A stretch of 64,000 nucleotides of DNA from a candidate division WOR-3 bacterium UBA1063 (GCA_002316275.1 DCDE01000035.1:1661-65660), one strand, 5' to 3'; shown: positions 2,598-32,321, numbered from the stretch's first letter. Made by a program: numbers and translations. Notes: generated from the sequence alone by a model not told the origin.

Positions 2598-5500
2598 TTA
2601 CCTCACCTTAATAATCCTCTCAACCTTCTGAAAACTGCCTGTCTTAATCCAAACAAAGTAAATACCCGAAGGTAGGATCTGTCCATGCTGATCACTCCCA
2701 TTCCAATAAAAAGAAGAAGGAGAAGACCTGCTACTGAAAGATTTCACTTGCCTACCAGTGGCATCAAAGATTCTTACATCAACTTCATCTCCACCACTCC
2801 CTGATCGCACGACAATGTTAAATTTATTGGAGAAAGGATTAGGATACATTTTTACTGAGGGCATAAGGGATGCTGCATCGTTCACGGAAGCAGATGGAAC
2901 AATCTCAATGTTTAAGTATCCAAACCCTTCATAGCTTCCTCCATTTCCCGTCATATGAAGCATGAAACCTGTAAAACCGGGGACAGCACTTGAATTTATC
3001 TGGAATATGTATGGATCATCGTAATTGCTTATTTCTTCCCCTATACCAAGGTAGTCGAATTCGGCGATACTATCGAGAACTGAGATATATGGCTCACATG
3101 CCCTCAAAACCGATGTCAAAGCAGTAATGTCGCTGGCACCAGAGTTGGAAAGAGTTACGATAAGTGAAACTGTTTCACCGGGCTCGGGGCTACCGTTGCC
3201 ATTACCAAAGGAAGAATCATCGATATTCCAGCCCGTTACCTCCACCCATGGACTTGTTATTCTTATTGGAATTTTCGTTGTAATTAGCAATGCCCTACCC
3301 GCTGTGAGATTTGAAGCATTTCTCGCATAAACATTATTGCACAGGTATTGCAACCCCCTCGTTTCGGTATGATCTTCAATACCAATGGTACAGCTGGATG
3401 CATTTGAGACTGTATTGTAAAGGAACAATATCTCTCCATCCCCTGTGGGAGTCGGGTAATATGCAGGGTCCAGCAAAACAATCTGAAAGGTTTCCCTTAT
3501 ACTGGGCTGTTCATAATGGGCACACTGATAGTATTCTATGATGAATCTGTGATTCTGCGAATCGTAGTACTGGTAGACGTCCCCATATAGATAGGGATTG
3601 ATGTCATCCCAGAAAGGAGCGATAAGACGCTTTGGGCCCCCACTCGCCGGTATCGCCCCATTTGATCCGAATCTATGCGTGGATGTACCCATTTCCACAA
3701 ATCCATTAGAACATACACCTATTGAGGTATAGTTGATCCCATAGAACTTGAAAGTAAATGGAAGCGAAATGGTCTCCGTATCGGCATCAGCATTTGTAAC
3801 CCTTGTTATGGTCGTTCCGCATCCAGCTATTTCAAACCATTGGTAAACTGGAGCATAACCGCTAAGAGTATCTGTATTATCATAAATGTAATAGCCATAA
3901 GGGTCGGGGCCCGTTTCGCCAGATGATGGAAAATTAAAATAAACAGAGACATTATAGGACCAACAGTTGTTTAACGAATCATTGAGCACCAGATTAAAGT
4001 TTACAACAGTGTTATTCCCCGCCTGGGGTGAAATGGAGGCTACATATGGTTTCAAATTACTCGCAGAATCCCCCGGAAGAATATCTCCGAATTCGGAAAT
4101 GCTATCACTGATAAATACCGTACTGTCAGATGTAGAAATAACACCCGTAACACCGTACGCTGTAGCCTGGCCAATATTCACAAGATTTGTCCATAAGAGG
4201 AAACTTTCCCCCGGGTCAATGGTTCCATTTCCATCACCAATCTCCTCAAATTCACGAGAATAAACAACTATATAAGGGTCACCTTGCGGTAATATGGGAA
4301 TTGAATCCTCATAAGGATGCAGATTCCTCCCTGTAATAGTAATGTAAAGATAACCGGCGTCACACGGACTTATGCTAAATGATACGGTGCCATTATCTTC
4401 TGTATAACCAGTTAAGTAAATGAGCGTATCCCTCATAACACAAACATAGGCCGATTCTACAGGTGCTGAATTATGCGTAATCGTAAGGGTAAGAGTATCT
4501 TCGCTGCCACATTCAGGCAGCGAGGAATAAGCGACCTCTAAACTTCTTGGCACGCCCGTCCATATCTGCATTGTGGGATCCCCCAATGCATGAAACCCAT
4601 AATAGTCTTCATCACCTGGATAGGCGGCGTACAACTTAAGTCTTGCTTCTTCACAAGCATCTCCGAAGGTATTTACGCCACCGAAAACAGAGCCAAAGAA
4701 AACTCTTGCTATCACGCTCCTATATTGAGCAGCAGATGTTCTTGTCGTTGTAGTAGCAAAATAGGCTGCTGCACCCCGTGGTGAGGTTGGAGTGCCTGTA
4801 AGAAGCCACATCTCTGCTGTACACGGGTTTCCAGAGGTACCGATAGTCCTACAGGTTGCGGAAACCACAATGGGCATCTTAGGTCCATTGGATAGATTGT
4901 CAGGCACAACATCAAATGGTGACCACCAGTTGTTAACACCAGATCCTCTATATAGAACGAAGCTCCTACCATCATTGACACGATTCATTACAGTGGTTGA
5001 ATTGTCTCCGAATGCATCACAAAGGGTATCGACAAGGATGTAGCCGGCTTCTAACATACACGCTTTTGCATACCTGGCATCATCCCAATAAATTGCATCA
5101 TCAGATGGATCATAGTCTAAATTTACTATTGTAGTACCCTTTAAAAACCATGTGGTATCCTGCATATAAGGTGTCCTCTCGTAAAGGAGGATCTTGTTCA
5201 CTACCGTCTGCATTTGAGTGAGATTCGAAGCAGTGATTCTACCAGAGATAATTTCATTGAAGAGATCTCCGTCCATGTTCGTGTAGTAATTATCACTCAT
5301 AATATTATTTACATACTGAAATGGAATAAGGTTAGGACCTCCAGCAATGAGAAGATAGTGGGGTCTAATCTGCCAAGTATTGTAAGCATTCAAAATGTAA
5401 TTTTTGATTTGAGTTGCACTGGTACCGGTCTCCGAAGTCTTGACAACCTTTGTGGTAATCCCCTTTTTCACTTTCCACTGCGCCAGAGGCATTACGGCGT

Positions 5501-5606
5501 CGTAGAAAGCGTCAGGGGTAATGATCAGATATTCAGCACCCCTCTCTTGTGCAAAGAGGAAGGTGGAGAAAAGCAATACGAAAAGTACTCTAAGTACTTT
5601 TTTCAT
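2598..5606 (-). CDS. peptidase C25 (gingipain family)-like secreted protein with CARDB-like domains and T9SS CTD
   Basis: Signal peptide. Gingipain-like region (YNTWQIRPHYLLIAGGPNLIPFQYV...PIVVSATCRTIG with conserved Cys). CARDB-like modules (GNGNGSPEPGETVSLIVTLSNSG, GDGNGTIDPGESFLLWTNLVNIG). C-terminal CTD (VRIFDATGRQV...GIYFVWIKTGSFQKVERIIKVR). Confidence 0.65.
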   Translation of the reverse strand: MKKVLRVLFVLLFSTFLFAQERGAEYLIITPDAFYDAVMPLAQWKVKKGITTKVVKTSETGTSATQIKNYILNAYNTWQIRPHYLLIAGGPNLIPFQYVNNIMSDNYYTNMDGDLFNEIISGRITASNLTQMQTVVNKILLYERTPYMQDTTWFLKGTTIVNLDYDPSDDAIYWDDARYAKACMLEAGYILVDTLCDAFGDNSTTVMNRVNDGRSFVLYRGSGVNNWWSPFDVVPDNLSNGPKMPIVVSATCRTIGTSGNPCTAEMWLLTGTPTSPRGAAAYFATTTTRTSAAQYRSVIARVFFGSVFGGVNTFGDACEEARLKLYAAYPGDEDYYGFHALGDPTMQIWTGVPRSLEVAYSSLPECGSEDTLTLTITHNSAPVESAYVCVMRDTLIYLTGYTEDNGTVSFSISPCDAGYLYITITGRNLHPYEDSIPILPQGDPYIVVYSREFEEIGDGNGTIDPGESFLLWTNLVNIGQATAYGVTGVISTSDSTVFISDSISEFGDILPGDSASNLKPYVASISPQAGNNTVVNFNLVLNDSLNNCWSYNVSVYFNFPSSGETGPDPYGYYIYDNTDTLSGYAPVYQWFEIAGCGTTITRVTNADADTETISLPFTFKFYGINYTSIGVCSNGFVEMGTSTHRFGSNGAIPASGGPKRLIAPFWDDINPYLYGDVYQYYDSQNHRFIIEYYQCAHYEQPSIRETFQIVLLDPAYYPTPTGDGEILFLYNTVSNASSCTIGIEDHTETRGLQYLCNNVYARNASNLTAGRALLITTKIPIRITSPWVEVTGWNIDDSSFGNGNGSPEPGETVSLIVTLSNSGASDITALTSVLRACEPYISVLDSIAEFDYLGIGEEISNYDDPYIFQINSSAVPGFTGFMLHMTGNGGSYEGFGYLNIEIVPSASVNDAASLMPSVKMYPNPFSNKFNIVVRSGSGGDEVDVRIFDATGRQVKSFSSRSSPSSFYWNGSDQHGQILPSGIYFVWIKTGSFQKVERIIKVR

Positions 5607-5692
5607 TTTCCCTCCGTATGGCGTTAAGTATACATCTTAATGTGAAAAAAAATGCACAATGAAACATCGGCTAAACTGTTAGAGGAAAGAAT

Positions 5693-6940
5693 CTAATTTA
5701 CTATCAAAAGCTCCGCTGGGATTAATTTTCCTTCACTTTCTACCAAAAGATAGTAAATACCACTTGGAAGCGGGCTCCCTGAATCACTCTTACCATCCCA
5801 AGAGATAGAAATTTCATTCTGAAAAGTAATATCCTCCCACCTCTTAACTTTACGACCTGTTATGTCAGTGAGACTCAAAGATACTCTCACGGTATACTCA
5901 TTACGCGACTTCAAAAAAAATGTATACTCATTTCCACCAAAAATAGTTTTAATTGTGAGTGTCACAGGTCCTTCATTTGGTTCCTCCGCAATGCCGGCAA
6001 TAACACCATCGTTCCACGTCTCACCCCCATCAAGTGTATATATGACATGATTATATCCGCATGCGATGCCGTGAAGCTCATCACTAAAATCTACATCAAA
6101 AAGAGTAGAATCTTGAGGGCTATTTTGCCTAGTCCAGGTCAAACCCCCGTCTTCGGTATAGAGAATTGTCCCTGTTCGTCCTACTGCCCATCCCTTGTTC
6201 CCGATGAATTCCAGTGCCCTCAGATACTTTGTATTCTCAGGAATCGCTGTGATAGAATCCCAAGTACTTCCTCCATTAGTGCTCCTCAAAATGATCGGTT
6301 CCAGCGTCTGATCATTTCCACCAACCACCACAATTACGTTTTCGTTAATTGCATGTACATCAAGGTAATCTTCATAACCCGTTGATTGATAAAGACTACT
6401 GCAGTTCTCTCCCCCATCTACGCTCTTTACAATATAGCCCTGCCCTGTATCACAACTATCAGGCCATCCTGCAACGGCATAAACCGTAAGGGTATCAGCA
6501 AAAGTAACTCCATAATACTCAGCGAGATAGTAAGGGGTAAAATATTGATCCCAATACTCCCCGCCGTTCCTGGTTCTCGCAATGACTCCGTCTCCGCCCA
6601 CAGCCCAACCATACAAACTATCAAGAAATTCAATCCTCGTTAGATATTTTGAAACACCAGTAACTTGCAATTCCCAAGTACCGCCACCATCCCGAGAGTG
6701 CATAATCTCTCCAAGGACACCGCAGGTCCATACCTTTTCTCCATCAGTGCAGCAAACATCAAAGAACCTTCTCGATGCAGTAGTTGAAATCTGATGCCAT
6801 ATAGCTCCGCCATCGGTCGTCTTTAAGACCATTATCGAATCCAGAGTAACCACATACCCTGTCAGGCCATCAGGTGCCAGTGCACAGCCGTGAAAATTTG
6901 AAAATGAAAGCACCTCTAAAAGCAACATTATACTACTCAT
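5693..6940 (-). CDS. BNR/Asp-box repeat beta-propeller protein (Ycf48/sialidase-like) with T9SS CTD
   Basis: At least seven S/T-x-D-G-G-x-T-W Asp-box repeats (TTDGGAIWH, SRDGGGTWE, TRNGGEYWD, STNGGSTWD, TEDGGLTWT, TLDGGETWN). C-terminal CTD (LTDITGRKV...SGIYYLLVESEGKLIPAELLIVN). Confidence 0.7.
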   Translation of the reverse strand: MSSIMLLLEVLSFSNFHGCALAPDGLTGYVVTLDSIMVLKTTDGGAIWHQISTTASRRFFDVCCTDGEKVWTCGVLGEIMHSRDGGGTWELQVTGVSKYLTRIEFLDSLYGWAVGGDGVIARTRNGGEYWDQYFTPYYLAEYYGVTFADTLTVYAVAGWPDSCDTGQGYIVKSVDGGENCSSLYQSTGYEDYLDVHAINENVIVVVGGNDQTLEPIILRSTNGGSTWDSITAIPENTKYLRALEFIGNKGWAVGRTGTILYTEDGGLTWTRQNSPQDSTLFDVDFSDELHGIACGYNHVIYTLDGGETWNDGVIAGIAEEPNEGPVTLTIKTIFGGNEYTFFLKSRNEYTVRVSLSLTDITGRKVKRWEDITFQNEISISWDGKSDSGSPLPSGIYYLLVESEGKLIPAELLIVN

Positions 6941-6950
6941 ACAACCTCCT

Positions 6951-9900
6951 TCAGTCCACTTTAATAACCTTCTTTAACTCACGATACTCCTCACCCTTAA
7001 TTTCAACAAAATAAATGCCAGAGGGTATATCACTACATTCCCATCGAATTTCATAAACCCCGACACCAGCTTTCGTATAAAGTTTTGGAACATCAAAATA
7101 AACCCGGCCCACGACATCGTATATCTTTACACCCGGGAAACTACTGTCCGGTAGCACTCCCCCGATGGTTATGTAAAGTACATCCCTCACGGGATTGGGT
7201 GCAACAGAGAAAGTCCGTTCAAAACCACGTTCTACAATGTCTGAGAGAGAATCGGGAGGATTCGTAGTAACCTTTATTGCCCTTCCATTTATAATTGGTG
7301 CACAGGCTAAAGGATAAACGTCGTTGTACGCGTAAAGGAGTCCTATATCTCTTGTCTGATTCTGTATTCCACAGGTTGCATAATAGTGCCAATAGTCATC
7401 GTTATTTATATTTTTGTATTGGAAAACAATAACCCCATCCCCACTTACCGTCTGATGATGAGATGGGTCATATAAGACAAGCTGAAAAGTCTGTTTTTCA
7501 CCAATCTGAGGCGATGTAGGATTGTGAATATGCGGAACTCCCGACCATTCAACAATAAAACGCAGGTTCTGTGCGTCGAAGTAATAACAGACCTTTCCAC
7601 CCGCTGATGCATCAAAGTAATCCCAGAAGGGTGCAACAATTGCTCCGGGGGCACTTAAGGATGGTAGTGTCCAGTTGTATATTTCTGAGTAATTCCAGGA
7701 ACCCATAACAATATATCCATTTTCACAAACCGAAACGGAATTGTAATCCCTACCATAAAATTTAAATGAGAATGGAAGTGAAACCGTAGCTATACCATCT
7801 GTAAAATGTACAATTGATCCACTCCCGCCAGAATCTGGGTCGATTTCAATCCATTGATAAACCGGGGCTTCTGGATGTGCATCAGAATTGTCATAAGCAA
7901 AATATCCATACCCATCAGGTCCATAAGGAGCATTTTGTGTAGGGATTCCAATTTCAATCTGAAAAGCAACAACTTGAGTCCAGGCGTTATTGCAGTTAAG
8001 GATCAGCGTAAAAGGTATTTTTCTACCAGGGTATAGTGAAGAAGAAACACTAACCCTGAAGGGGTCAGAAGAGTTAGAAGAAGATCCACTTACTGGTATA
8101 CTTCCGAAAACTCCTATTGAATCAATTATTGTAACGCCCCTATCTTCAGACCGAAGAATACCCGTCACCGTTTCCGCACCCTGACCTCCCGAATCTACTA
8201 GAGAAACAATTAGATTTGCAGTTTCGCCTGGGTCGAAAATCCCATTCCCACCATCGGAAATGGTATATCCAGTGATAGCAAAGTTGGGCGCCTTTACTTC
8301 TACCCAAAAAGACCAGTCGAAATTACCCTGAGAAGAAGAGACCATAGCATCAAACCTGATGCTGCTATTATTCCGTGCATCATTTAAGACACTGAAAGCA
8401 TAGGGCCCACGCTCAACCACCTGACCAGGAGAAATAGAACCAAAACTAAAGACCGAGTCAATGAGACTTACAAGCGGATCCAAAGTCGATATTCTCACCA
8501 CCACATTAGATGCAGAGACCGAATTGCCATAATTTTTCACACTTAAATGCAGATTCAGCGTCTCCCCAGGGTTGACATCTCCATTCCCATTCCCCTGAGA
8601 GTCGTCTATACTATGAGAATAATACCCTGGGTACACCGAAGAATTGGATACCATTGTATAACCGGTGTATGGAATACGATTGGGCGCGGTTACAGTTACA
8701 AAGAGCGTGTCAGAGCTGCCCGTTGTAACCTGGAAATATGCATAGCCACCAGCATCGGTAATACCTACTTCCTTCACCTCATTATATTTGTAAAGACTGA
8801 CCAAAGCTCCCTTAAAAGGTAAGGAATTGTAATCAAGCACCCTAACAGAATATGTACTGACACCCTGCGGACATGATGGAGGATGTATTACAATTAACGT
8901 CTCAGGGACATCTGTCCAAACTTCAAGAGAAGGATCTCCCAGTAAATTGTAAGCGTAGAAATAATAACCTACACTATCAACATAACTGCTACCCTGAAAA
9001 TTCATTATTAATTCCAGCTTGCTCCTAAGCATAAGGGAACCAAGCACATATATTCCCTCCGAAAGAAGCCCACCGTAAAATCCCAGGTCTATACAATTGT
9101 TCCATCTCGAGTGAGTATTGGGTGAGGAAGAACCATAAAATGACACTGCACCCTTCGGATTAAGAGTATCACCAGCGGTAATCCATTTTCTTCCAAAACA
9201 GGCAGGATTATGATATGCGCCGGTATTACATACAATACTAGTTACTACAGGTAACTTCCAGCCGTTTGACAATTCTTCAATGTTACTAACCATAAAGGAT
9301 GGATAGTACCATCCCGCGTAGTTTGCATTCCCACCCCGATAGTTCACAAATGCTACACCACGATTCACAGAAGCAATTATGTCAGATGCAACTGGATGAT
9401 GAATGCTATCATAAAACATCGTGTCAATTTTAGTGTATCCAAAATCCAGCATTTCAGCCCCTATTCTCCTCTTGACCTTGATGGGGGTTGTCATCTGATC
9501 AGGGGGATAATCAGCTCCTATAAGAAGAGCACTATTTAGCCAAGTCGGATCAGAAGTAAAAGGATTGGCCTCATACTGGATTATTTTCTTAACAACTGTT
9601 CTCAGTTGATTCACGTTTTCAACATCAAGTCTCCCCACGATCATTTCAGGGATATAATCAATATAATCCGTGAGGCCATAAGGTAGATCTGTAGGATTTG
9701 TTTCACCTGGAATAGAAAAATTTGGAACAACTGCAATACCTCCAACCAATAAAACGAACTCTGGACGTGGTTCCATAGTATTCCAACACTGCACTATGGA
9801 ATCTCTAATCTGGTAGTGACTTAATTCTCCTGGATTGAACTTGATGACCCTTACTGAATAACCCTTTTTCTCCTTCCAATCTATTAGAGGGAGAGTTGCG

Positions 9901-10385
9901 CTATAATAATTATCAGGAACAACAAATATAATGCCTCCTGGTAAACAATCCTCCTCAACATAATTTAAAACAATGTTTTTTAATACCATCCTATAGGAAC
10001 GAGATAACCTCGAAAAATCAGGTACACTTGACAGAATCTCAACCTGAACTTTCTTAGCTGACACGATATTTTCCTGCTCCATGAAGACCGAATTTATCGT
10101 CACTGGATAAAAATTCATACCCAAAAGGTTAATAGGTTCACTTATAACAATTCCACATTTTGAACTATTTACATCTCCCATAAAATTCTCTCGTTCCAAA
10201 ATCCTATACGTAACAACAGGTGTCGTAGAAGATGCCACAAGATGCGTAAATGAGGCAGACTCCCCGCTGTCGAATTCCAAGATAAATACATTATCAGTAG
10301 GTGAGCTATATATCTTCTCAACATAAACACTATCGAGAAGTGGGAGCTCGACCTTTAAACATACCAGAAAAAACAGAATCTTCAC
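6951..10385 (-). CDS. peptidase C25 (gingipain family)-like large secreted protein with CARDB-like domains and T9SS CTD; paralog of 2598..5606
   Basis: Signal peptide. C25-like core (FVNYRGGNANYAGW...LPVVTSIVCNTGAYHNPACFG). CARDB-like modules (GNGNGDVNPGETLNLHLSVKNYG, GGNGIFDPGETANLIVSLVDSGG). Module PVYQWIEI...SLPFSFKFYGRDYNSVSVCENGYIVMG shared with the 1002-aa paralog. CTD ending GIYFVEIKGEEYRELKKVIKVD. Confidence 0.65.
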   Translation of the reverse strand: MKILFFLVCLKVELPLLDSVYVEKIYSSPTDNVFILEFDSGESASFTHLVASSTTPVVTYRILERENFMGDVNSSKCGIVISEPINLLGMNFYPVTINSVFMEQENIVSAKKVQVEILSSVPDFSRLSRSYRMVLKNIVLNYVEEDCLPGGIIFVVPDNYYSATLPLIDWKEKKGYSVRVIKFNPGELSHYQIRDSIVQCWNTMEPRPEFVLLVGGIAVVPNFSIPGETNPTDLPYGLTDYIDYIPEMIVGRLDVENVNQLRTVVKKIIQYEANPFTSDPTWLNSALLIGADYPPDQMTTPIKVKRRIGAEMLDFGYTKIDTMFYDSIHHPVASDIIASVNRGVAFVNYRGGNANYAGWYYPSFMVSNIEELSNGWKLPVVTSIVCNTGAYHNPACFGRKWITAGDTLNPKGAVSFYGSSSPNTHSRWNNCIDLGFYGGLLSEGIYVLGSLMLRSKLELIMNFQGSSYVDSVGYYFYAYNLLGDPSLEVWTDVPETLIVIHPPSCPQGVSTYSVRVLDYNSLPFKGALVSLYKYNEVKEVGITDAGGYAYFQVTTGSSDTLFVTVTAPNRIPYTGYTMVSNSSVYPGYYSHSIDDSQGNGNGDVNPGETLNLHLSVKNYGNSVSASNVVVRISTLDPLVSLIDSVFSFGSISPGQVVERGPYAFSVLNDARNNSSIRFDAMVSSSQGNFDWSFWVEVKAPNFAITGYTISDGGNGIFDPGETANLIVSLVDSGGQGAETVTGILRSEDRGVTIIDSIGVFGSIPVSGSSSNSSDPFRVSVSSSLYPGRKIPFTLILNCNNAWTQVVAFQIEIGIPTQNAPYGPDGYGYFAYDNSDAHPEAPVYQWIEIDPDSGGSGSIVHFTDGIATVSLPFSFKFYGRDYNSVSVCENGYIVMGSWNYSEIYNWTLPSLSAPGAIVAPFWDYFDASAGGKVCYYFDAQNLRFIVEWSGVPHIHNPTSPQIGEKQTFQLVLYDPSHHQTVSGDGVIVFQYKNINNDDYWHYYATCGIQNQTRDIGLLYAYNDVYPLACAPIINGRAIKVTTNPPDSLSDIVERGFERTFSVAPNPVRDVLYITIGGVLPDSSFPGVKIYDVVGRVYFDVPKLYTKAGVGVYEIRWECSDIPSGIYFVEIKGEEYRELKKVIKVD

Positions 10386-22745: not shown

Positions 22746-23035
22746 GAATAGACATTTTCCTTAAAAAGACAGGTATAAGTGCTTCAAGAACAAGAACAAA
22801 GAATATAAATATCACGGTAAATGGTCAAAGGAAGAAACCTTCATATGAAGTTCGAGTATACGATATCATTGAGATTACCGACGGTGCGGGGAATCATATG
22901 CAGTTGGAGGTGCTTGGAATCCCTTCTTCCTCCATCTCCAAAGATGAACGAGAAAAATATATCAAAGTTTTGAAAAAGGGAAAAGTTCCAGTTTCAAACG
23001 AGAATTTTCTAAAATGGCTATTCGAAAATTATTGA
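22742..23035 (+). CDS. S4-domain RNA-binding protein (Hsp15/RqcP-like)
   Basis: N-terminal MRIDIFLKKTGISASRTRTK matches the S4 alpha-L motif. Confidence 0.5.
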   Translation: MRIDIFLKKTGISASRTRTKNINITVNGQRKKPSYEVRVYDIIEITDGAGNHMQLEVLGIPSSSISKDEREKYIKVLKKGKVPVSNENFLKWLFENY

Positions 23036-24318
23036 TCTTATCAACCCTCCTATTTAGTTCCTGCGCTTACTTCAACACAGTTTACAATGCAAAACTCTAT
23101 TTTAAAGAAGCAGAAAAGATCTACAGAGAGCAGGGTCAGAACACAAGGGAGTCGTCAACAAATTACAACAAGACAATTGAAAAGAGTTCCAAGGTTTTCG
23201 AGTTTTACCCAGAATCAGACTACATTGACGATGCACTCTACCTTACTGCAGTTTCATATAAGAGACTTGGCGATTATACAAAGGCAAAAATTAAATTTGA
23301 AGAACTATTCAATTACTTCCCCGATTCCCCATATGCGAAGCAAGCTTTAATTGAATACATCGATCTCCTTGTGAACTTGAACTACCTAAACGAAGCCAAT
23401 ATGGAGATAAGGAAGCATCCAGAAATTAAAAATGACCCGGAATTCATATTAATAAATACTAAACTTTTATTTACACAAAAAGAATATGAAAGCTTAATAA
23501 ACTTGGTCGAAAGGGAATGGAACAAAGTTTTAAAAAATCCTATGAAGAAGATTATTTTCCAACTCGCTCTGGAGTCCGCAATTAGAACTAAAAACTGGGA
23601 AAAGGCTCAAAAGTTTTTGGAGCAAATTGAAAAGATTGCAATAACTGATAATGAAAGAATCTACCTCATCGTTACCAGGGCCGATATGCTTGCTAACCAG
23701 GGGAAATTTGATGAGGCGCAAAAGATTCTCGATCAAGCAGGTTTTCAAGATGACTCACCACAATATAGGATATTGCAATATGAAAAGGCAAGGTTGTATT
23801 CACAGGGTGGCAATTATGAACCAGCGATTAGTACTATAGAAAAAATCTTGGAAAAACCGCAAAGGGATTCTGTTTACACAAAAACACTGTTCTTAAAAGG
23901 AAAAATCATGGAAACATTAGACAGCCTTGAGCAGGCAATTGCAATTTATGAGAATCTTAGAAACTCCCCTCTCTCTAAAAATCTTAGAGATGAAATTGAA
24001 ATGAGGTACAATTCCTTGATAGCAATCTCTTCAGAAGAAAATAGTGATCAGAGTAAGCTAAGAAAGGCAGAATTGTACCTCCTTGACCTTGGGAATGTCG
24101 AAAAAGCTTTAGAATTATATCAGGAGCTCATTGCTACATCAAAAGATAATGAAGTAAAAGCAAAAGCGATGTATGCTGCTATGATAGTCTACAGAAATTA
24201 TTTAAATGACGAACAAAAAGCATCAGAACTCGCTAGGCGTATCACAAGCGAATTCCCCAATTCCTATCAGGCTTCGAAAGTACACGAACTTAATATATTG
24301 AATGTGACAGAAAATTAA
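23014..24318 (+). CDS. TPR-repeat lipoprotein
   Basis: Lipobox LLFSSC. Multiple 34-aa TPR-like helical repeats (ALYLTAVSYKRLGDYTKA...). Confidence 0.55.
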   Translation: MAIRKLLILSTLLFSSCAYFNTVYNAKLYFKEAEKIYREQGQNTRESSTNYNKTIEKSSKVFEFYPESDYIDDALYLTAVSYKRLGDYTKAKIKFEELFNYFPDSPYAKQALIEYIDLLVNLNYLNEANMEIRKHPEIKNDPEFILINTKLLFTQKEYESLINLVEREWNKVLKNPMKKIIFQLALESAIRTKNWEKAQKFLEQIEKIAITDNERIYLIVTRADMLANQGKFDEAQKILDQAGFQDDSPQYRILQYEKARLYSQGGNYEPAISTIEKILEKPQRDSVYTKTLFLKGKIMETLDSLEQAIAIYENLRNSPLSKNLRDEIEMRYNSLIAISSEENSDQSKLRKAELYLLDLGNVEKALELYQELIATSKDNEVKAKAMYAAMIVYRNYLNDEQKASELARRITSEFPNSYQASKVHELNILNVTEN

Positions 24319-24335
24319 CTTATAATTCAAACATT

Positions 24336-25592
24336 ATGGGCTTAATAAGATCAAAAGAAGACATTGTCTTATCTTATAGATGGGAAAATTCGACAATTGC
24401 ACAGAATTTACCCTTTAACGAGCAAAAATTTTTGCTAATAAAAATGCGCCCTATAAATATACCGCCGCAGCCGAGAGTGAATCTAATATTAGTGCTCGAT
24501 AAAAGCTCCTCGATGGAAGGTGAACCACTTGAGAACCTTAAAAAGGCAGTTAAAGAGATCGTACAAATCCTGGATGAGGAAGATAGAATTAGCATAGTGC
24601 TTTTTGACTCTGAAGCGAGGACTATCGTTTCGAATTCACCCACCTCTCAGAGAAAAGAAATAGTAAGCAGAATTGAAGACATCTTTCCCCTTGGTGGCAC
24701 CTGCATTGATGAGGGAATTGCAACAGGAATTGAAGAATCAGAAAAACTACAATCCGAAAGTATAATAAAGTGGATGATTCTACTCACCGATGGAAAGAAT
24801 GAGCACGGCAATAATGATAGATGCCTCGATCTTGCAAGAATAGCAAAGAGAAACGGCTTAAGTATCACTACATTGGGCCTTGGGAGGAAGTGGGACCCGA
24901 GATTACTTGAACAGATCGCTGATATTTCCGGAGGCAAGATGTACTATGTTGAAAATCCTAAAGAATTAAAAGACCGATTTATTAGTGAGTTCCGAAGCAT
25001 TAAAAATATTGCTTATAAGGACCTGTCACTTAAAGTAAAACTTGAGAAGTTTGCGCGCTTATCGGATATTTCACCAGCTTTTATTATCACTCCACAAATT
25101 AAGAAAATTGAGCCTCTTTGGGATGGTGAACAATGGATCATAGAAGGGGGAAATCTTGAACGAGAAAAAGAGAAGCTCATCCTACTCCAGATGTTCATCT
25201 CCGCACCCGAATCAAGCTACATAAATAAAGTCTTGGAGTACATAATAGAGTATAGAACAATCTTTGGCGAGAAACTCGAAAGCAGCGCCCATAACGTAGT
25301 ATTAGAGGTTACCGAAAGTTATGTTTCTCAGTTTGATGAAGAAGTTAGAGATGCACTTCAGAAAGTAAGCCTATACGTACAACAAGAATTAGCAGAAAAA
25401 CTCATAGACGAGGGAAAGCCCCTCGAAGCCCTTACAGTTCTTCAAACAATGGTACAAACTGCCATTAAATTCGAAGACGGAGATCTAAAAAATCTTATTG
25501 AAGAAAATATACAGAAAGTGAAAGCCGACGGCACATTACCGGATGAATTAAGAATCAAGACAAAGTACGAAACCAAGATGGTTGACGAATGA
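24336..25592 (+). CDS. cytoplasmic von Willebrand factor A (vWA) domain protein with intact MIDAS, plus an uncharacterised C-terminal ~200-aa domain
   Basis: DxSxS (VLDKSSSMEG), T (PLGGTCID) and D (LLTDGKNEHG) MIDAS residues. No signal peptide or TM. Confidence 0.75.
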   Translation: MGLIRSKEDIVLSYRWENSTIAQNLPFNEQKFLLIKMRPINIPPQPRVNLILVLDKSSSMEGEPLENLKKAVKEIVQILDEEDRISIVLFDSEARTIVSNSPTSQRKEIVSRIEDIFPLGGTCIDEGIATGIEESEKLQSESIIKWMILLTDGKNEHGNNDRCLDLARIAKRNGLSITTLGLGRKWDPRLLEQIADISGGKMYYVENPKELKDRFISEFRSIKNIAYKDLSLKVKLEKFARLSDISPAFIITPQIKKIEPLWDGEQWIIEGGNLEREKEKLILLQMFISAPESSYINKVLEYIIEYRTIFGEKLESSAHNVVLEVTESYVSQFDEEVRDALQKVSLYVQQELAEKLIDEGKPLEALTVLQTMVQTAIKFEDGDLKNLIEENIQKVKADGTLPDELRIKTKYETKMVDE

Positions 25593-26125
25593 AGTGTCCG
25601 ATCTGTGGCCTGCAAAATGCAGAAGGTGTTAAATTTTGTGAAAGATGCCTTTCAGCCCTTGATATTTTTATGGTTAACCCAGAAGAGGAAGGCATTTACT
25701 GCAACCAAGGACATTGGAATCCCATAGGTGCCAAATTTTGCTCCATTTGCGGCGAACCCATAAAAATAGAACCCATACTCCTTAGCCCCTATGTACTTGT
25801 CGAAAAAGACAGCGGCAAGATTATCAGCTTGCCTTTAAATGAAGAAGAAATCACAAAAGTGATTGTCGGTCGGAAAAGTACCGAATTTAAGCCCGACGTA
25901 GACCTTTCAGAGCTCACTCTCTCAGCTACCGTCTCCAGGAGACATGCGATGCTTATAATAGACCCAGAAAGTAAATCTATTTCGATCCAGGATTTGGGGA
26001 GTACTAACGGCACCTATTTAAATGGAGAAAGATTAGAGCCTAACAAAATCTATAAAGTAAACCCAGGGGACGTAATCAGCTTTAGCAAGAAACTACACCT
26101 AACATTTGAGGTTAAAAAACAATGA
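25589..26125 (+). CDS. double zinc-ribbon + FHA domain protein
   Basis: Zinc ribbons CPICG...CERC and CNQG...CSICG. FHA core VIVGRKS...SRRHAMLI...IQDLGSTNGTYLNGERL. 4-nt overlap with the vWA gene. Confidence 0.8.
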   Translation: MKCPICGLQNAEGVKFCERCLSALDIFMVNPEEEGIYCNQGHWNPIGAKFCSICGEPIKIEPILLSPYVLVEKDSGKIISLPLNEEEITKVIVGRKSTEFKPDVDLSELTLSATVSRRHAMLIIDPESKSISIQDLGSTNGTYLNGERLEPNKIYKVNPGDVISFSKKLHLTFEVKKQ

Positions 26126-27600
26126 GACTTGTGAGATGTCCACGATGTAATACATTTAACTCCCCCAATGTTCACGAATGCGCTACCTGTGGTTTTGATC
26201 TCAATTATTGTTTCTGTTCAAAATGTGGGACCAAAATAAAAATAGGCACTGAAAAGTGCCCTAATTGCGGTTCAGACAATGAGAAGCTCCTCTTTGCACC
26301 ATTTCCTGTAAAGAAAATCGTGGATCCAAAGTACCTTATCAAGTCCATAGAAGTCCATGGCACGATTCTTAAGGAGGTAAACCCTAATTTGATAAAGATT
26401 CAGACAGATTCAGCCATTCTCGAGTTTTATAATTCCAGCGGGAATTTGTATGATAGTATCGAAGTTGGAAAAAATTCATTCCTCCCTTTGATAGAGAAGC
26501 CAACAGAACTTAGAAAAATTTCACAAATCTGGCAAGAGCTCGGGGATGAGGCAAGAATCACATTTATTAAGTCATTAATAGAGAGAATCTCCGGTTTTAA
26601 CCTCTATTTCCCTGAACGACTGGAAGATATCGTTTTTGACGAAAGGTATAGGCCTTGCTTCCCAGTACTTGAGCACAAAGAGAAAGGGTATATTGACTCA
26701 AAAGATTTCCTATGTAACATCCTTCGCATCCTTAAAGGGTATGAAGGCTCTCTATGGGAAAATGAAAAAAACGAAATTATTAGAAAAAAATGTGAAGCTT
26801 ACATTTTCATCAATTGGCTTGACGAAATAAAACAAAAAATACACATGAATTCTGTAAGCTATGCAGGAATCAGTGATAAAGGCCCTACACGGACAAAGAA
26901 TGAAGATGCTATTTTAATGATTGAATCGTCTTACAAAACTTATGCTGCTGAGAATTTAGATGCAAAAAAACAATATCTTTTCGTACTTTCGGATGGCCTT
27001 GGTGGACACGAGAGAGGCGAGGTAGCCGCAGAGCTAATTGTCGATGGTATAAGTAAAGAATTCTACAAGCATCTGTTACCTAAAAGTAACATAGAATTAG
27101 AAGATATAGTGGAATCCATTGGGGTTGTGAACAATTATGTATATTCAAAGAACACACAAACTGAGATGACTATGCAACGAATGGGCGGTACCATCTCTGG
27201 ACTCTTAATCGATAGAGACCGATTCATGGTATTCAATGTGGGAGACTCGCCAATTTTTCTTCTCAACGACGAGGACATCACAGAACTTTCCATCCGTGAT
27301 ACCTCTACCAAGAAAAACAAAGCCATTACTCAAGCAATAGGTATAAGGCCTTTCGACGAGATCGAAGTGCATATTAATGAATTGCAAATACCATGGGAAA
27401 AATTCAAAGTACTAATCTGCTCTGATGGTTTAACTGATGTCGTGACTCCTGTTAAAATAGCCAGTATAATTAAAAGCTGTAAGAAAAACCTACGTGAAGC
27501 TTGCTTAAAGCTTTTAGAAGAAGCGCACGAAAAGAAAAGTAGTGATAACGTAAGTGTGATTGTAGTAAATGTAGAGAAAGAAATCGTAATAGGAAGGTAA
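26122..27600 (+). CDS. double zinc-ribbon + PP2C-family Ser/Thr phosphatase
   Basis: Zinc ribbons CPRC...CATCG and CSKCG...CPNCG. PP2C motifs TRTKNEDA, FVLSDGLGGHERGEVAAE, CSDGLTDVV. 4-nt overlap with the FHA gene. Confidence 0.8.
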   Translation: MRLVRCPRCNTFNSPNVHECATCGFDLNYCFCSKCGTKIKIGTEKCPNCGSDNEKLLFAPFPVKKIVDPKYLIKSIEVHGTILKEVNPNLIKIQTDSAILEFYNSSGNLYDSIEVGKNSFLPLIEKPTELRKISQIWQELGDEARITFIKSLIERISGFNLYFPERLEDIVFDERYRPCFPVLEHKEKGYIDSKDFLCNILRILKGYEGSLWENEKNEIIRKKCEAYIFINWLDEIKQKIHMNSVSYAGISDKGPTRTKNEDAILMIESSYKTYAAENLDAKKQYLFVLSDGLGGHERGEVAAELIVDGISKEFYKHLLPKSNIELEDIVESIGVVNNYVYSKNTQTEMTMQRMGGTISGLLIDRDRFMVFNVGDSPIFLLNDEDITELSIRDTSTKKNKAITQAIGIRPFDEIEVHINELQIPWEKFKVLICSDGLTDVVTPVKIASIIKSCKKNLREACLKLLEEAHEKKSSDNVSVIVVNVEKEIVIGR

Positions 27601-27603
27601 CAT

Positions 27604-29685
27604 GTGAAGAGATGCTCTGTGTGTGGAAAGGATAATCAGGATAATGCGTTATTTTGTGCCTTTTGCGGAAATAAATTTGATCAAAATACTTGCAAAGTAT
27701 GCGGTCAAGCAAACCCGCCTGGAGAATTGTTTTGTGTAAGGTGCGGGAACCCTATAATTGAAGGTTTACTCATAATAGAAAATAGATATAAGCTAATTAA
27801 GAAAATAGGCGTGGGTGGGTTCGGAAAGACATATCTCGCGGAGGACCTTCAACTTTTCGGCAAAAAAGTTGTAATTAAAGAATTCTCAATGAAATCTGCA
27901 AAATTTGACGAATTCATCAAATTTACTCAGCAAGAGGGAATGATACTTGCTAAACTAAACCACCCCCAGATACCAAAAATCCATGGATTCCTTGAAGACA
28001 AAAAGAATTCAAAGATTTATCTAATTCAGGACTTTGTTGAGGGAAAGAATCTCCGGCAACTCCTCACGGAAAGAACAAAACTGGAAGAAGATGAGGCAAT
28101 CATCATTTTAAAAGACACCTTGGATATACTCAGTTACCTACATTCCTTTAACCCTTCTTTACTCCACCGAGATATTAAACCCGAGAATATCATCGTAGAC
28201 CAAAATGGAAAAGCATATTTAGTCGATTATGGCGCAGTGATAGAATATCACGGTGATAAAAAAGACAGGGAAATTATGTACACCAAGGGCTATGCTTCAC
28301 CTCAGCAGAAGCAGGGCTTTTCATCTCCATCGAGCGACCTATACTCCCTCGGGATTGTTGCCATAGAAATCCTAACAGGGCTAACTCCTGACAAGTTTAA
28401 AAACGAAGAGACAGGAATTGTTGATTACTCAGTTATAAACGATATGAGCGTCGAATTGAGAGATTTCCTTGTAAAAATGACAAAACTGTCTACTTCTGAT
28501 AGATTCAAAAATGCCTCCGAAGCAAAAAATGCTCTCGAAGTGATTGAAAAAATCAGAACTCTCAGAGACATAAAGATTTCACAATATCACGGGAAAATCG
28601 GTGAGAAAGAAAGAAAAGACATAATAGATATGGCAAAAAAGTTAAATATCAGTCTAGACTTAATAAATAAGGTACTCGAAGAAGAGAAACATAAGATAGA
28701 AACGAAAGATGCATATAAAAAGGAAGTCTCGCCTTCATCCCCCTTTATTACAAGACTCTCTATAGTTTCCCAAGCTACTGGAGTCACAACTTGCAAGTTG
28801 ATCGGAAAAGTGCAAGCTCATCAAGGGTTAGCAATAAAAGTTGTTTTCTCTCCAAAGGGTGAATATATGCTTACAGCCGGGGCTGATGGAGTAATTAAAG
28901 TCTTTGGGACGACCCAATGGGAAAGAAAAATTTCTATTAAGGCGACTACTGATGATGATACTTTGACAGATATGAAAATGTCACCAAATTCACAATACCT
29001 TGTAGTATCAGCAAAATCTGGAAACATCAAATTCTTCGAAACTTCTTTCTGGACAAGACTCAACGTCGTCCACATTCAAAATGACGAAATCTCTGAAATT
29101 ACTTTCTCGCCCGACTCTAGACTGCTTTTTGTGGGTGGGTACGAAAAGGCAATATCCATTTTCGATATGATGAAGGTAGAAAAAACCGTTAATTTAACAG
29201 GACATGAAACTTGGATCAGCTGCTTAGAACATTCCCCAAAGGATAGATTGCTAGTATCAGGTGCCTGGGATGGCAGCGTCTTTATGTGGGATACACAAGA
29301 AATGAAATTAAAAAAATCTTTCAAGGAACATACGGGGCAGGTAAAGAAGATCCGATTTGCAAATTCTGGTAGATTCTTCGTTACTTCAGCGAATGACGGA
29401 TTAATTAACATATGGGACCCCTCCTCATTAACCATCGTTAAAAGGTATCAAATCTCTGAAGATTCGAGACAAATAATAGATATTGCTATTACCCCAAATG
29501 AGAAATACCTGCTGATTGCCTCGGAGAGGCGTGTATTAGTCATTGGATTAGACCTAATGGACAAGAAAATGGAAGTAGACCTTCAAACAAGAAAATGCAC
29601 AAGTATCAGCTTTTTCCCTCAAAAAAATTATTTTGCTACGAGTGATATCGACGGAATTATAAAACTATGGAAACTATCCATTTAG
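27604..29685 (+). CDS. double zinc-ribbon + Hanks-type Ser/Thr protein kinase + C-terminal WD40 beta-propeller
   Basis: GTG start 3 nt after the phosphatase stop. Zinc ribbons CSVCG...CAFCG and CKVCG...CVRCG. Kinase motifs GVGGFGKTY, VVIKEF, HRDIKPENI, DYG, GYASPQQ. WD40 repeats from ~aa 400 (GADGVIKVFG, SGAWDGSVFMWD, SANDGLINIWD, TSDIDGIIKLWK). Confidence 0.85.
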   Translation: MKRCSVCGKDNQDNALFCAFCGNKFDQNTCKVCGQANPPGELFCVRCGNPIIEGLLIIENRYKLIKKIGVGGFGKTYLAEDLQLFGKKVVIKEFSMKSAKFDEFIKFTQQEGMILAKLNHPQIPKIHGFLEDKKNSKIYLIQDFVEGKNLRQLLTERTKLEEDEAIIILKDTLDILSYLHSFNPSLLHRDIKPENIIVDQNGKAYLVDYGAVIEYHGDKKDREIMYTKGYASPQQKQGFSSPSSDLYSLGIVAIEILTGLTPDKFKNEETGIVDYSVINDMSVELRDFLVKMTKLSTSDRFKNASEAKNALEVIEKIRTLRDIKISQYHGKIGEKERKDIIDMAKKLNISLDLINKVLEEEKHKIETKDAYKKEVSPSSPFITRLSIVSQATGVTTCKLIGKVQAHQGLAIKVVFSPKGEYMLTAGADGVIKVFGTTQWERKISIKATTDDDTLTDMKMSPNSQYLVVSAKSGNIKFFETSFWTRLNVVHIQNDEISEITFSPDSRLLFVGGYEKAISIFDMMKVEKTVNLTGHETWISCLEHSPKDRLLVSGAWDGSVFMWDTQEMKLKKSFKEHTGQVKKIRFANSGRFFVTSANDGLINIWDPSSLTIVKRYQISEDSRQIIDIAITPNEKYLLIASERRVLVIGLDLMDKKMEVDLQTRKCTSISFFPQKNYFATSDIDGIIKLWKLSI

Positions 29686-30287
29686 TCGATATCCAGGTTA
29701 AAAATAACCCTTTCTCGCCTCATCCGCTCTGCATTAATAATTGAAACTATCCCCTTTGCAGCTTCATCTATCAACGAACTTATGACCCAGTATTGGTAAT
29801 TTTCCGCCCACTTCAATTCGACCTTGGCTCTGGAAAGCCTCTCTTGTAATTCCGATTCATTTTCAGTCTTTCGCCCATTCAACCTCCTTCTTAATTCTTC
29901 AAAAGAGGGTGGAAGAAGAAAAATGGAAATAATACTACCATCATACATGGCCTCAAGGGATTCTTTCCCCTGAATATCAAGATCCATTAGCACATCCATT
30001 CCTGCTTCAAGAGCTTTGATAACAGGGCTTTTGGGAGTACCATAATATTCTCCTCCAAACACTTTCGCCCACTCAAGTAGATCACCACTCTCAATCATTC
30101 TTTCGAACTCTTTCTTTGTAACGAAAATATAATCAACCCCATCAACTTCGCCTGGTCTGGGGGGCCTTGTAGTGGCAGAGACAGAATAAAAGACGCCAGA
30201 AACAAGCCTTCTAACCTCTTTAAGAATAGTAGTTTTACCAGCCCCGGATGGCGCAGATACTACAATTATGAACGGTTTATGATTCAT
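29682..30287 (-). CDS. gmk: guanylate kinase
   Basis: P-loop SAPSGAGKTT. GEVDGVDYIFV guanylate kinase core. 201 aa. Confidence 0.85.
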   Translation of the reverse strand: MNHKPFIIVVSAPSGAGKTTILKEVRRLVSGVFYSVSATTRPPRPGEVDGVDYIFVTKKEFERMIESGDLLEWAKVFGGEYYGTPKSPVIKALEAGMDVLMDLDIQGKESLEAMYDGSIISIFLLPPSFEELRRRLNGRKTENESELQERLSRAKVELKWAENYQYWVISSLIDEAAKGIVSIINAERMRRERVIFNLDID

Positions 30288-32107
30288 TCTACTGTCACAC
30301 TTTTTGCAAGATTCCTTGGCCTGTCTACATCACATCCTCTTCCAACAGCCACGTTATATGCAAAAAGCTGCAGAGGAATGATTGACACCAAAGGAGTAAG
30401 TAACTCGTTCACCTCAGGCATCTTAAAAACATAATCACTCAGCATCTCCATTTTTAAGTCACCAGAAGAGGCAACAGAAATTATAATGCCGCCCCTTGCG
30501 CGTACTTCTTCGATATTATTCAGAGACTTCTCATAAACAGACGTCTTAGGATTCACGAAGACCACTGGTAAATCTTTGTCCACAAGTGCCAGGGGCCCAT
30601 GCTTCATTTCACCAGCGGCATAACCCGTAGCATGAACATAAGAAACCTCTTTTAACTTCAAAGCACCTTCAAGGGCTGTTGGATAGTTTATACCTCGTCC
30701 AAGGAAAACAAAATGTTTTGCATCCAAAAATCTGGTTGCAACTTCCTTCACATAACCAGACTCACATAGAACATCGTTTATCTTTCCGGGTAGCTCAAAC
30801 AGTTCATCCCTCATCCTCGAAAAATCCTCTTCAGAAACGAAGCCTCTTAGTAATCCAACTTCTAAACTCAGTAAGAACAGTATTAGAATCTGTGCAGTAT
30901 ATGCTTTAGTCGATGCTACCCCTATTTCAGGACCTGCATTTATATAAAGAACATAGTCTGATTCCCTTGCAATCGAACTATCCTTAACGTTGACAATAGA
31001 AAGTACTTCAAAACCATTTTCCTTAACTAGTTTCACTCCAGCAAGGGTATCTGCTGTCTCGCCCGATTGACTAATGGCAATTACCAACGTGTTTTGACCA
31101 AGGACAGGTTCTCTATAGCGAAACTCTGAAGAATAATCAACATCAGTTTGAATCCTTGCAAGTTTCTCCAACAAGTACTTCCCCACGAGCCCGGCATGCA
31201 TAGAAGTCCCAGAGGCCTGTATCAAAATTCTATCCTTATTCAAAAGCAATCTCCTCAAGTTAAAATCTTTCAGAAGGGTAACTTCGTTACCTCTAATATA
31301 GTACTCAAGGTTCCTTCGCAAGACTTCAGGTTGCTCAAAAATCTCCTTTAGCATGAAGTGTGAAAATTCGCCTTTTTCTGCCATATCTACGGTCCAGTCT
31401 ATCTTTGTGATATACTTCTGCTTTGGATTCCCATCAAAGTCATATACAGACCAAGAATTCTGAGTCAAAACGCAAATCTCCCCATCATTAAGTACTACTA
31501 CATCCTTAGTATGGGATAAAAGCGGCATCTGATCCGACGAAAGAAGCATCTCATCTTTACCCACTCCAATGATCAAAGGGCTCCCCATTTTTACACCTAT
31601 AATGCGGTCCGGCTCCATAGATGACAGTATCACAAGTGCAAAAGAACCTTGTAATCTTTTCACAGCTTTCAACACAGCATCAAAAAGAGAACCCTCATAG
31701 TATTCTTCAATTAAATGCGGAATGACCTCGCTGTCAGTTTCAGATACGAATTTATGCCCACTTTTTTCGAGTTCTAGCTTCAACTCTTGAAAATTCTCTA
31801 TGATGCCATTATGGGACACGGCAATCTGAGACTTACAATCAACGTGGGGATGGGCATTGATATCATTCACCCCTCCATGAGTTGCCCATCGTGTATGGCC
31901 AATTCCTGCTTTTCCGTTAAACGCCATTCCATTTACAAGTTTGTATAAATCCCCAATTCTTCCTGAACGCTTTTTTACTACTAGCCTCCCATTATGGATG
32001 ACCGCAATTCCAGCCGAATCATACCCGCGGTACTCAAGCTTTTCGAGACCAACAAGAATCACGGCACCCAAATCTTTAGATCCTATATATCCAACTATTC
32101 CACACAT
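30284..32107 (-). CDS. glmS: glutamine--fructose-6-phosphate aminotransferase
   Basis: MCGIVGYIG Ntn-amidotransferase N-terminus. Two SIS domains. C-terminal AKSVTVE. Start trimmed to the Met preceding the catalytic Cys, because the track ORF extension overlaps tRNA-Leu. Confidence 0.9.
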   Translation of the reverse strand: MCGIVGYIGSKDLGAVILVGLEKLEYRGYDSAGIAVIHNGRLVVKKRSGRIGDLYKLVNGMAFNGKAGIGHTRWATHGGVNDINAHPHVDCKSQIAVSHNGIIENFQELKLELEKSGHKFVSETDSEVIPHLIEEYYEGSLFDAVLKAVKRLQGSFALVILSSMEPDRIIGVKMGSPLIIGVGKDEMLLSSDQMPLLSHTKDVVVLNDGEICVLTQNSWSVYDFDGNPKQKYITKIDWTVDMAEKGEFSHFMLKEIFEQPEVLRRNLEYYIRGNEVTLLKDFNLRRLLLNKDRILIQASGTSMHAGLVGKYLLEKLARIQTDVDYSSEFRYREPVLGQNTLVIAISQSGETADTLAGVKLVKENGFEVLSIVNVKDSSIARESDYVLYINAGPEIGVASTKAYTAQILILFLLSLEVGLLRGFVSEEDFSRMRDELFELPGKINDVLCESGYVKEVATRFLDAKHFVFLGRGINYPTALEGALKLKEVSYVHATGYAAGEMKHGPLALVDKDLPVVFVNPKTSVYEKSLNNIEEVRARGGIIISVASSGDLKMEMLSDYVFKMPEVNELLTPLVSIIPLQLFAYNVAVGRGCDVDRPRNLAKSVTVE

Positions 32108-32114
32108 TTCATTT

Positions 32115-32200
32115 AATGCCGGAGGAGGGACTCGAACCCTCACTCCGCTTTAACGGAAGCGGATTTTGAGTCCGCCGCGTCTTCCTATTCCGCCACTCCG
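32115..32200 (-). tRNA. tRNA-Leu (anticodon CAA), class II with long variable arm
   Basis: Hand-folded. Acceptor GCCGGAG/CTCCGGC+A. Anticodon stem GCGGA/TCCGC with loop CTCAAAA. T-loop GGTTCGAGTCC. No encoded CCA. Confidence 0.8.
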
Positions 32201-32321
32201 GCCAAGTAAAATTATAAAACCTCACTGGATGAGAATCAATTATAGAATCAGGAAACTACGAATTTAGACCGATTCGGCTCATTGCTTTTTCAATACTTTC
32301 CATTTATAATAAACCACTACA

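Follow-up and report, generated by a model that had tools for sequence, protein, structure and literature searches.

Four consecutive genes in a stretch of 64,000 nucleotides (nt) from the candidate division WOR-3 bacterium UBA1063 (the window, to which all positions refer) probably encode a complete cytoplasmic phosphothreonine switch; we put the probability of this reading at roughly 0.65. The operon, at 24336-29685 on the plus strand, consists of the genes for a vWA protein, a small FHA protein, a PP2C phosphatase and a Hanks kinase that ends in a WD40 propeller, and these would be the scaffold, reader, eraser and writer of a switch built on a scaffold of the type of archaeal ArnB. Most likely, the operon is a bacterial relative of the ArnA/ArnB switch of Sulfolobus acidocaldarius and of the cyanobacterial FraH/Alr4359 switch, and not an unknown kind of system. 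The anatomy, conservation, fold and homology presented here were established by computation, and the corresponding interactions in Sulfolobus and Anabaena by the experiments of others.

A first-pass annotation of the window had given the positions of the four genes exactly, and its domain assignments are backed by Pfam and NCBIfam scans (Table 1). At the vWA/FHA and FHA/PP2C junctions the genes overlap by 4 nt (ATGA), and a 3-nt gap separates the PP2C and kinase genes, with the sequence GGAAGG 6 nt upstream of the kinase start codon. The arrangement of scaffold, reader, kinase and phosphatase in one translationally coupled unit argues that they form one functional system.

The vWA and FHA proteins resemble ArnB and ArnA

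The vWA domain of the first protein is recognized by Pfam at aa 49-213 (E 5e-24). Its metal-ion-dependent adhesion site (MIDAS) is complete and its five residues, listed in Table 1, are invariant in 19 homologs; the sequence contains no signal peptide or membrane segment. The C-terminal part of about 200 aa, which had been left unassigned in the first-pass annotation, can be assigned as a beta-sandwich followed by a helix bundle on an AlphaFold2 model for which 19 homologs were used (predicted local distance difference test score 91, predicted template-modelling score 0.88). By comparison with ArnB, whose N-terminal strands complete its sandwich (PMC6509490), the strands at aa 10-39 probably have this role in the WOR-3 protein as well. 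Foldseek searches with the model gave template-modelling (TM) scores of 0.80 to 4FX5 and 0.66-0.73 to ArnB, and ArnB was also the best match in the PDB for the sequence profile of the vWA family (E 3e-21). When the C-terminal 204 aa were compared by phmmer with 1.8 billion representative proteins, 9 clusters were found at E <= 1e-3, and the domain can be traced by sequence within WOR-3 and cyanobacteria only; the link to ArnB thus rests on the fold and on the sequence of the vWA domain.

The FHA protein carries a double zinc ribbon (DZR aa 3-55, 30.7 bits, above the cut-off) in front of an FHA domain that scores E 7e-16 in Pfam and has conserved residues. It matches ArnA in the PDB (5a8i and 8s05_C, ranks 3 and 4) with an E value of ~4e-6. 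Both proteins have an N-terminal zinc ribbon or finger and a C-terminal FHA domain with phosphothreonine-binding residues. ArnA and ArnB (Saci_1210/1211; PDB 8S05, 5A8J, 5A8I) also resemble the WOR-3 pair in that the gene for the zinc finger or ribbon and FHA lies next to a tripartite vWA gene in both, and the fold match of the vWA protein to ArnB is full-length: the vWA domain is inserted in an eight-stranded beta-sandwich, which a helix bundle follows.

In S. acidocaldarius, arnA (zinc finger and FHA) adjoins arnB, whose product consists of a vWA domain with an intact MIDAS, a beta-sandwich and a bundle of four helices, and the two proteins form a phosphorylation-dependent switch (PMC6509490). 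The mapped phosphothreonines of ArnB all lie in the C-terminal bundle, the deletion of which abolishes ArnA binding (PMC6509490), and the kinases that phosphorylate the bundle threonines are ArnC and ArnD (PMC6509490, PMC12852372). A 2.1 Å co-crystal structure of the unphosphorylated state shows the zinc finger of ArnA on the beta-sandwich and C-terminal domain of ArnB; sequential phosphorylation by ArnC then opens the bundle and leads to tight FHA binding, which PP2A reverses (PMC12852372). We propose that the WOR-3 proteins form a counterpart of this phosphothreonine-dependent switch from a loose to a tight complex. In the WOR-3 bundle, the invariant T367, T375 and T409, together with T371 and T413, are candidate phospho-acceptors by their position and by analogy with ArnB.

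The Sulfolobus system differs in where its enzymes are encoded. ArnC/ArnD and PP2A are encoded elsewhere in Sulfolobus, whereas the WOR-3 operon itself contains a DZR-Hanks-WD40 kinase and a PP2C phosphatase, each with a double ribbon. In addition, the Sulfolobus switch is archaeal and its output is archaellum expression, which is not applicable to WOR-3.

The FraH-Alr4359 pair of cyanobacteria

At least 560 genome loci encode relatives that match the vWA protein over its full length, with 29-33% identity. Among the best 80 of these loci, four belong to WOR-3/Hydrothermia and the other 76 are from cyanobacteria or uncultured organisms. Threonines of the bundle are invariant from WOR-3 to cyanobacteria. 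At 19 of the 76 loci, mainly of the Pseudanabaena type, the next gene encodes a DZR domain joined to an FHA domain by a long Pro/Ser-rich linker, which is the architecture of FraH. The vWA gene lies divergently beside two or three clpP/clpR genes at 38 of 79 cyanobacterial loci (L005, L088, L010, L068 and L075 among them), and these loci do not overlap with those in which the FHA gene follows the vWA gene.

The 'hypothetical protein' Alr4359 of Anabaena PCC 7120 binds FraH in yeast two-hybrid and affinity purification-mass spectrometry experiments, and the same pair was found in Synechocystis (PMC9035410). Alr4359 adjoins and interacts with the Clp proteases All4357/All4358 and is phosphorylated at T362 and T410, and co-purification links FraH to the kinase Alr0548 and the phosphatase Alr0547; the report makes no mention of vWA, FHA or ArnB (PMC9035410). 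The published primers for Alr4359 encode MKVNLQPVLN... and ...KTVLQDTPPK, which match the termini of the vWA family, and those for FraH encode MIVCPNCN... and ...VTFLFKLA, which match the termini of the DZR-FHA family. Furthermore, residues 362 and 410 are both Thr in the Nostocales orthologs L068 and L075, and residue 362 is the invariant Thr, equivalent by alignment to T367 in the window's vWA protein. From the primer-encoded termini, the Clp synteny and the Thr numbering, Alr4359 is very probably the ortholog of the window's vWA protein.

FraH shares the double ribbon and the FHA domain with the WOR-3 FHA protein and differs from it in its long Pro/Ser-rich linker; the segment between ribbon and FHA is ~30 aa in the window protein versus ~100-130 aa in the cyanobacterial neighbours. 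The Anabaena genes are dispersed (alr4359, alr1603 and alr0547/0548), whereas those of WOR-3 are in one operon. FraH-Alr4359 also works with CurT at heterocyst poles and thylakoids, structures that the non-phototrophic WOR-3 organism lacks.

The four-gene unit is conserved as a block

We found the identical gene order in at least seven contigs (L001, L006-L009, L086 and L087, the last of which ends inside the kinase gene), and all three zinc-ribbon prefixes are kept in these units. The identity of the vWA protein to that of the window is 80-65% in L006, L007 and L008, 52% in L086 and 39% in L001 and L009. The middle domain of the PP2C protein is present in all seven contigs, and the WD40 propeller in the six with a complete kinase gene. 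A protein with 100% identity to the window's FHA protein comes from Candidatus Hydrothermia, the former candidate division WOR-3, now class Caldifarciminia.

The unit occurs in three flank contexts. In the window and L006-L008 it lies between mfd-SurA-SurA-S4-TPR and gmk-glmS, the downstream side of which is also found in L086; in L001 and L009 it is preceded by a 2-hydroxyacid dehydrogenase gene and a GAF-GGDEF gene and followed by GT2-PFOR; and in L087 it follows nusA-infB-HPr-PtsI-TsaE. None of the three contexts contains a secretion or defence cassette, and no output-gene candidate is conserved across them. Since the same order and ribbon prefixes recur across contigs with housekeeping flanks, the unit is selected as a block and is self-contained. 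This agrees with the first-pass annotation, which had described a self-contained phosphothreonine switch without T6SS (type VI secretion system) genes. T6SS, other secretion or defence genes are not consistently found beside the unit, and the conservation contradicts the possibilities, raised in that annotation, that the four genes are not syntenic elsewhere or that they always adjoin a known secretion or defence cassette.

The WOR-3 version of the system is distinctive in that its four genes are coupled, three of the partners are ribboned, the kinase carries a WD40 propeller and the PP2C protein has a clade-specific middle domain. This middle domain (190 aa) is confidently modelled and has no match to any family or known fold; it is confined to the WOR-3/Hydrothermia clade, as are the full-length relatives of the PP2C protein. 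The phosphatase domain is Stp1-like (aa ~250-485, E 7e-40; PP2C_2 at aa 282-451), with PppA among its best structural matches, and its metal-binding residues are invariant in the orthologs.

The kinase domain is recognized by Pfam with an E value of 1e-39, followed by a conserved linker (aa 320-400) to which no domain could be assigned and by the WD40 propeller at aa ~405-691. It had been described as having all Hanks motifs. The K, E and HRDIKPEN motifs are indeed intact, but DYG and SPQ replace DFG and APE in the window's clade; distant orthologs retain DFG and (A/S)PE. With its catalytic residues conserved, a catalytically dead kinase is unlikely.

Zinc ribbons and a model of the putative switch

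Zinc ribbons precede the functional domains of the FHA, PP2C and kinase proteins. In Pfam, the DZR match of the kinase (aa 4-48) scores 36.7 bits, and that of the PP2C protein (aa 6-50) scores 23.3 bits, below the cut-off, with Zn_Ribbon_1 above it. All eight ribbon Cys are conserved in both the PP2C and the kinase orthologs. The FHA protein does have the double ribbon predicted earlier, but its second ribbon is C-x3-H...C-x2-C (with a conserved GHWN) and not Cys4. The ribbons are thus conserved in the orthologs of all three proteins, contrary to the concern that orthologs might lack the Cys clusters, and they match one another weakly. Their conservation on three partners, this cross-matching and the docking of the ArnA finger suggest that the ribbons target the partners to the scaffold. 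An earlier suggestion that they serve as an assembly tag is plausible, in view of their conservation here and of the ArnA zinc finger docked on ArnB in the co-crystal (PMC12852372).

By analogy with the studied relatives, we infer the following biochemical steps, ribbon docking of kinase and PP2C, input and output for the WOR-3 organism. The vWA protein, in which the vWA domain is inserted in a beta-sandwich and followed by a four-helix bundle, would be both substrate and platform. The Hanks kinase would phosphorylate the bundle and tail threonines T367, T371, T375, T409 and T413; the FHA domain of the small ribbon protein would then clamp the phosphorylated bundle, so that the loose complex becomes tight, and PP2C would reset the switch. 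The N-terminal ribbons probably dock reader, eraser and writer on the scaffold, and they may compete for it. Input would arrive at the WD40 propeller and perhaps also at the PP2C middle domain, and the state of the switch would be passed to partners by the MIDAS face and by the ribbon that phosphorylation sets free. A bolder version of this model, which we regard as tentative and more likely wrong than right, is that the double ribbons are interchangeable address tags whose mutually exclusive docking orders the access of kinase, phosphatase and FHA protein, and that the operon is a Rosetta stone for one ancient module found in all three domains of life, of which ArnAB, the FraH-Alr4359 pair and, in Sec23/24, the zinc finger-vWA-sandwich-helical core would be versions.

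Several points weigh against a switch of this kind. The identity to ArnB is 17-18%, and the significant sequence alignment is limited to the vWA part. The architecture of ArnB is widespread (4FX5, YfbK, Sec23/24) and 'mostly not' found in multi-phosphorylation systems (PMC12852372). ArnA has a single RanBP2-type finger, whereas the WOR-3 FHA protein has a double ribbon, and the Sulfolobus writer and eraser are architecturally unrelated to those of the operon, namely the OB/TPR kinase ArnC and a PP2A instead of a PP2C. On the cyanobacterial side, the family placement of Alr4359 is indirect, through primer termini, synteny and Thr numbering, and Alr0548 is an FHA-kinase, not a WD40-kinase. Finally, the switch of the WOR-3 organism is predicted from its genes, and for the kinase and PP2C the binding of their ribbons to the scaffold is extrapolated from ArnA. 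As to the rarity of such scaffolds in multi-phosphorylation systems, the WOR-3 operon is evidently a bacterial case in which the ArnB architecture joins such a system.

Other related systems

The first-pass annotation pointed to the PpkA/PppA/Fha pathway of type VI secretion as having the same domain inventory and did not know the exact arrangement as a described system. That this pathway is the closest known system is not supported, and the arrangement does have described relatives: ArnA/ArnB, FraH-Alr4359, the Deinococcus radiodurans genes DRA0331-DRA0334 and the TerY-P triad are closer. DRA0331-DRA0334 encode a vWA protein, a kinase, a FraH-like FHA protein and a KI-FHA-PP2C protein and have been proposed to be a self-contained phosphorylation unit (bioRxiv 10.64898/2026.01.23.701218). 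Compared by the description in this preprint alone, they share the four-gene inventory of the WOR-3 operon and differ in gene order, in a kinase with three transmembrane helices and in the PP2C protein, which has a KI-FHA domain where the WOR-3 protein has a zinc ribbon and the middle domain; the preprint makes no mention of zinc ribbons. A tblastn search of plasmids with the vWA protein, made to locate the Deinococcus operon, returned only MerR and VWA pairs and other unrelated contexts. In these pairs, a different conserved arrangement on Deinococcus and Meiothermus plasmids (L089, L090 and L091), a MerR-family gene is immediately followed by a VWA gene of ~400-420 aa, and genes for FHA, PP2C or kinase proteins are absent.

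In Actinobacteria, GTPase-centric systems are accompanied by gene clusters for a PP2C, a vWA protein and a kinase with a zinc ribbon (PMC7159879). Two metagenomic loci show looser combinations of these domains, and the theme is thus a recurrent one. In the metagenomic locus L095 (3252-9026), a PP2C gene, a gene for a 642-aa vWA-Big_7-FHA fusion, a DZR-FHA gene and a kinase gene occur together, with a separate zinc-ribbon protein further downstream; L094 encodes an FHA protein and a kinase-FHA protein, both with zinc ribbons, as well as an FHA-GAF-SpoIIE protein.

Alternative explanations

In the first-pass annotation, the vWA protein was seen as a possible input sensor. The operon would then be a generic Ser/Thr cassette in which the vWA protein senses a ligand or metal through its MIDAS, and the kinase, PP2C and FHA proteins act mainly on targets encoded elsewhere. 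The complete and invariant MIDAS fits this idea, as do the absence of output genes from the neighbourhood and the fact that WD40 and vWA domains are classic interaction modules. However, the vWA proteins of both studied relatives are themselves phosphoproteins bound by their FHA partner, and the invariance of threonines in the bundle from WOR-3 to cyanobacteria also speaks against a mere sensor. The vWA protein is therefore more likely a phosphorylated scaffold or substrate, and we consider the generic cassette unlikely.

A TerY-P-type triad, working as a switch in stress or anti-phage defence, is a less probable explanation. As summarized in PMC10542128 and PMC4978471, which cite Anantharaman et al. 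2012, TerY-P is a predicted phosphorylation switch in which genes for vWA, PP2C and Hanks kinase proteins form a triad, with links to Ter, restriction or DNA-processing genes or to stand-alone defence. Both papers describe the same three-gene inventory, encoded together as in WOR-3, and in PMC10542128 the TerY-P kinases likewise carry a zinc ribbon. In PADLOC, the kinase of the operon matched the models PD-T4-6 and mad6, yet the match is generic, and the vWA, FHA and PP2C proteins have none. TerY-P has no FHA reader, and its kinase has a C-terminal zinc ribbon or OB fold, whereas the WOR-3 kinase has its ribbon at the N-terminus and the WD40 propeller at the C-terminus; the window vWA protein is of the 418-aa ArnB type. 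Moreover, the operon has housekeeping flanks, clade-wide synteny and a GC content equal to that of its flanks, and no nuclease, restriction, Ter or mobile-element genes were found near it. With this housekeeping context and the missing PADLOC matches, we rejected TerY-P-type defence as the main explanation.

In the T6SS pathway PpkA/PppA/Fha1, a Hanks kinase works with a PP2C, an FHA protein and a vWA domain, the last of which lies in the periplasm as part of the membrane kinase PpkA. To our knowledge, Fha1 lacks a zinc ribbon and the pathway always lies inside a T6SS cluster. The domain inventory of the operon is similar, and a secretion-gating threonine pathway could here perhaps gate a type IX secretion system (T9SS), as two T9SS-sorted C25 peptidases are encoded at 2598-10385 and the TPR lipoprotein upstream of the operon is weakly PorW/SprE-like. 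We regard this as very improbable. The T6SS pathway itself was rejected, as no T6SS genes are present in the window or the related loci. Housekeeping genes and a distance of 14 kb separate the T9SS cargo genes, which are on the opposite strand, from the operon; the PorW match reaches 48 bits versus a cut-off of 250; and the flanks in clades B and C are quite different. Unlike PpkA, the WOR-3 kinase lacks a membrane segment, and its operon has the vWA domain on a cytoplasmic protein of its own.

Chance adjacency of unrelated signalling genes, for which nothing but the general abundance of such domains speaks, is already refuted by the conservation data, namely overlapping stop and start codons and the same order in seven contigs with vWA identities from 80% to 39% where measured and three flank contexts.

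Other features of the operon and the window

A promoter-like TTGAAT-17-TATAAT sequence ends 10 nt upstream of the vWA start codon (Table 1) and, if real, would yield a transcript almost without a leader. The scan for promoters and terminators was uninformative, with 44 promoter-like sites versus 33 expected, and consensus matches are common in this AT-rich DNA.

The gene directly upstream of the operon, at a 17-nt gap, encodes a TPR lipoprotein that is syntenic in the window's own clade only and gives sub-threshold matches to the YbgF, BamD and PorW/SprE models. Downstream, a tRNA-Leu(CAA) gene overlaps a mechanical N-terminal extension of the glmS open reading frame (ORF), and the true start of GlmS is almost certainly the methionine of MCGIVG, a few codons inside the ORF. 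Near the beginning of the window, two gingipain-like Peptidase_C25 proteins have T9SS sorting domains (Por_Secre_tail) at their C-termini; from this cargo, the organism probably has a type IX secretion system. The gene between them encodes a BNR/YCF48-like protein with a FlgD_ig tail. An ORF at 303-1136, which had been considered a second FHA-like ORF, was rejected because it encodes a family 2 glycosyltransferase.

Table 1 Positions of the operon genes, their domains and neighbouring features in the window
Feature	Position	Strand	Extent	Remarks
vWA gene (putative scaffold)	24336-25592	+	418 aa
N-terminal beta strands			aa 10-39	AlphaFold2 model
vWA domain	24474-25004	+	aa 47-223	MIDAS D55, S57, S59, T122, D152
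Beta-sandwich	25008-25313	+	aa 225-326	DSSP on model
C-terminal four-helix bundle	25338-25577	+	aa 335-414	Invariant T367, T375, T409, K414
FHA gene (putative reader)	25589-26125	+	178 aa
Double zinc ribbon			aa 2-57
FHA domain			aa 91-165	GR, SxxH and NG motifs
PP2C gene (putative eraser)	26122-27600	+	492 aa
Double zinc ribbon			aa 6-50	Zinc ribbons of the domain scans, aa 6-52
Middle domain	26284-26856	+	aa 55-245	alpha/beta
Catalytic domain			aa 250-485
Kinase gene (putative writer)	27604-29685	+	693 aa	GTG start
Double zinc ribbon			aa 4-48
Hanks kinase domain			aa 62-304
Helical linker			aa 320-400	Conserved
WD40 propeller			aa 405-691
Promoter-like sequence	24298-24326	+		TTGAAT-17-TATAAT
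TPR lipoprotein gene	23014-24318	+
glmS ORF	30284-32143	-
tRNA-Leu(CAA)	32117-32202	-
Peptidase_C25 protein	2598-5606	-		Por_Secre_tail
BNR/YCF48-like protein	5693-6940	-		FlgD_ig tail
Peptidase_C25 protein	6951-10385	-		Por_Secre_tail

Implications

So far, ArnAB has been described as an archaeal regulator and FraH as a cyanobacterial filament and thylakoid factor without a known mechanism, and Alr4359 has been called hypothetical; no connection is drawn between them in the literature compared here. The WOR-3 operon ties ArnA/ArnB and FraH/Alr4359 together and offers a compact set of four proteins for reconstitution. For FraH-Alr4359, it suggests phosphorylation-dependent binding of the FHA domain to the bundle around T362, together with docking through the zinc ribbon. 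It also raises a general hypothesis on why zinc ribbons recur on the kinases of vWA/PP2C/kinase triads.

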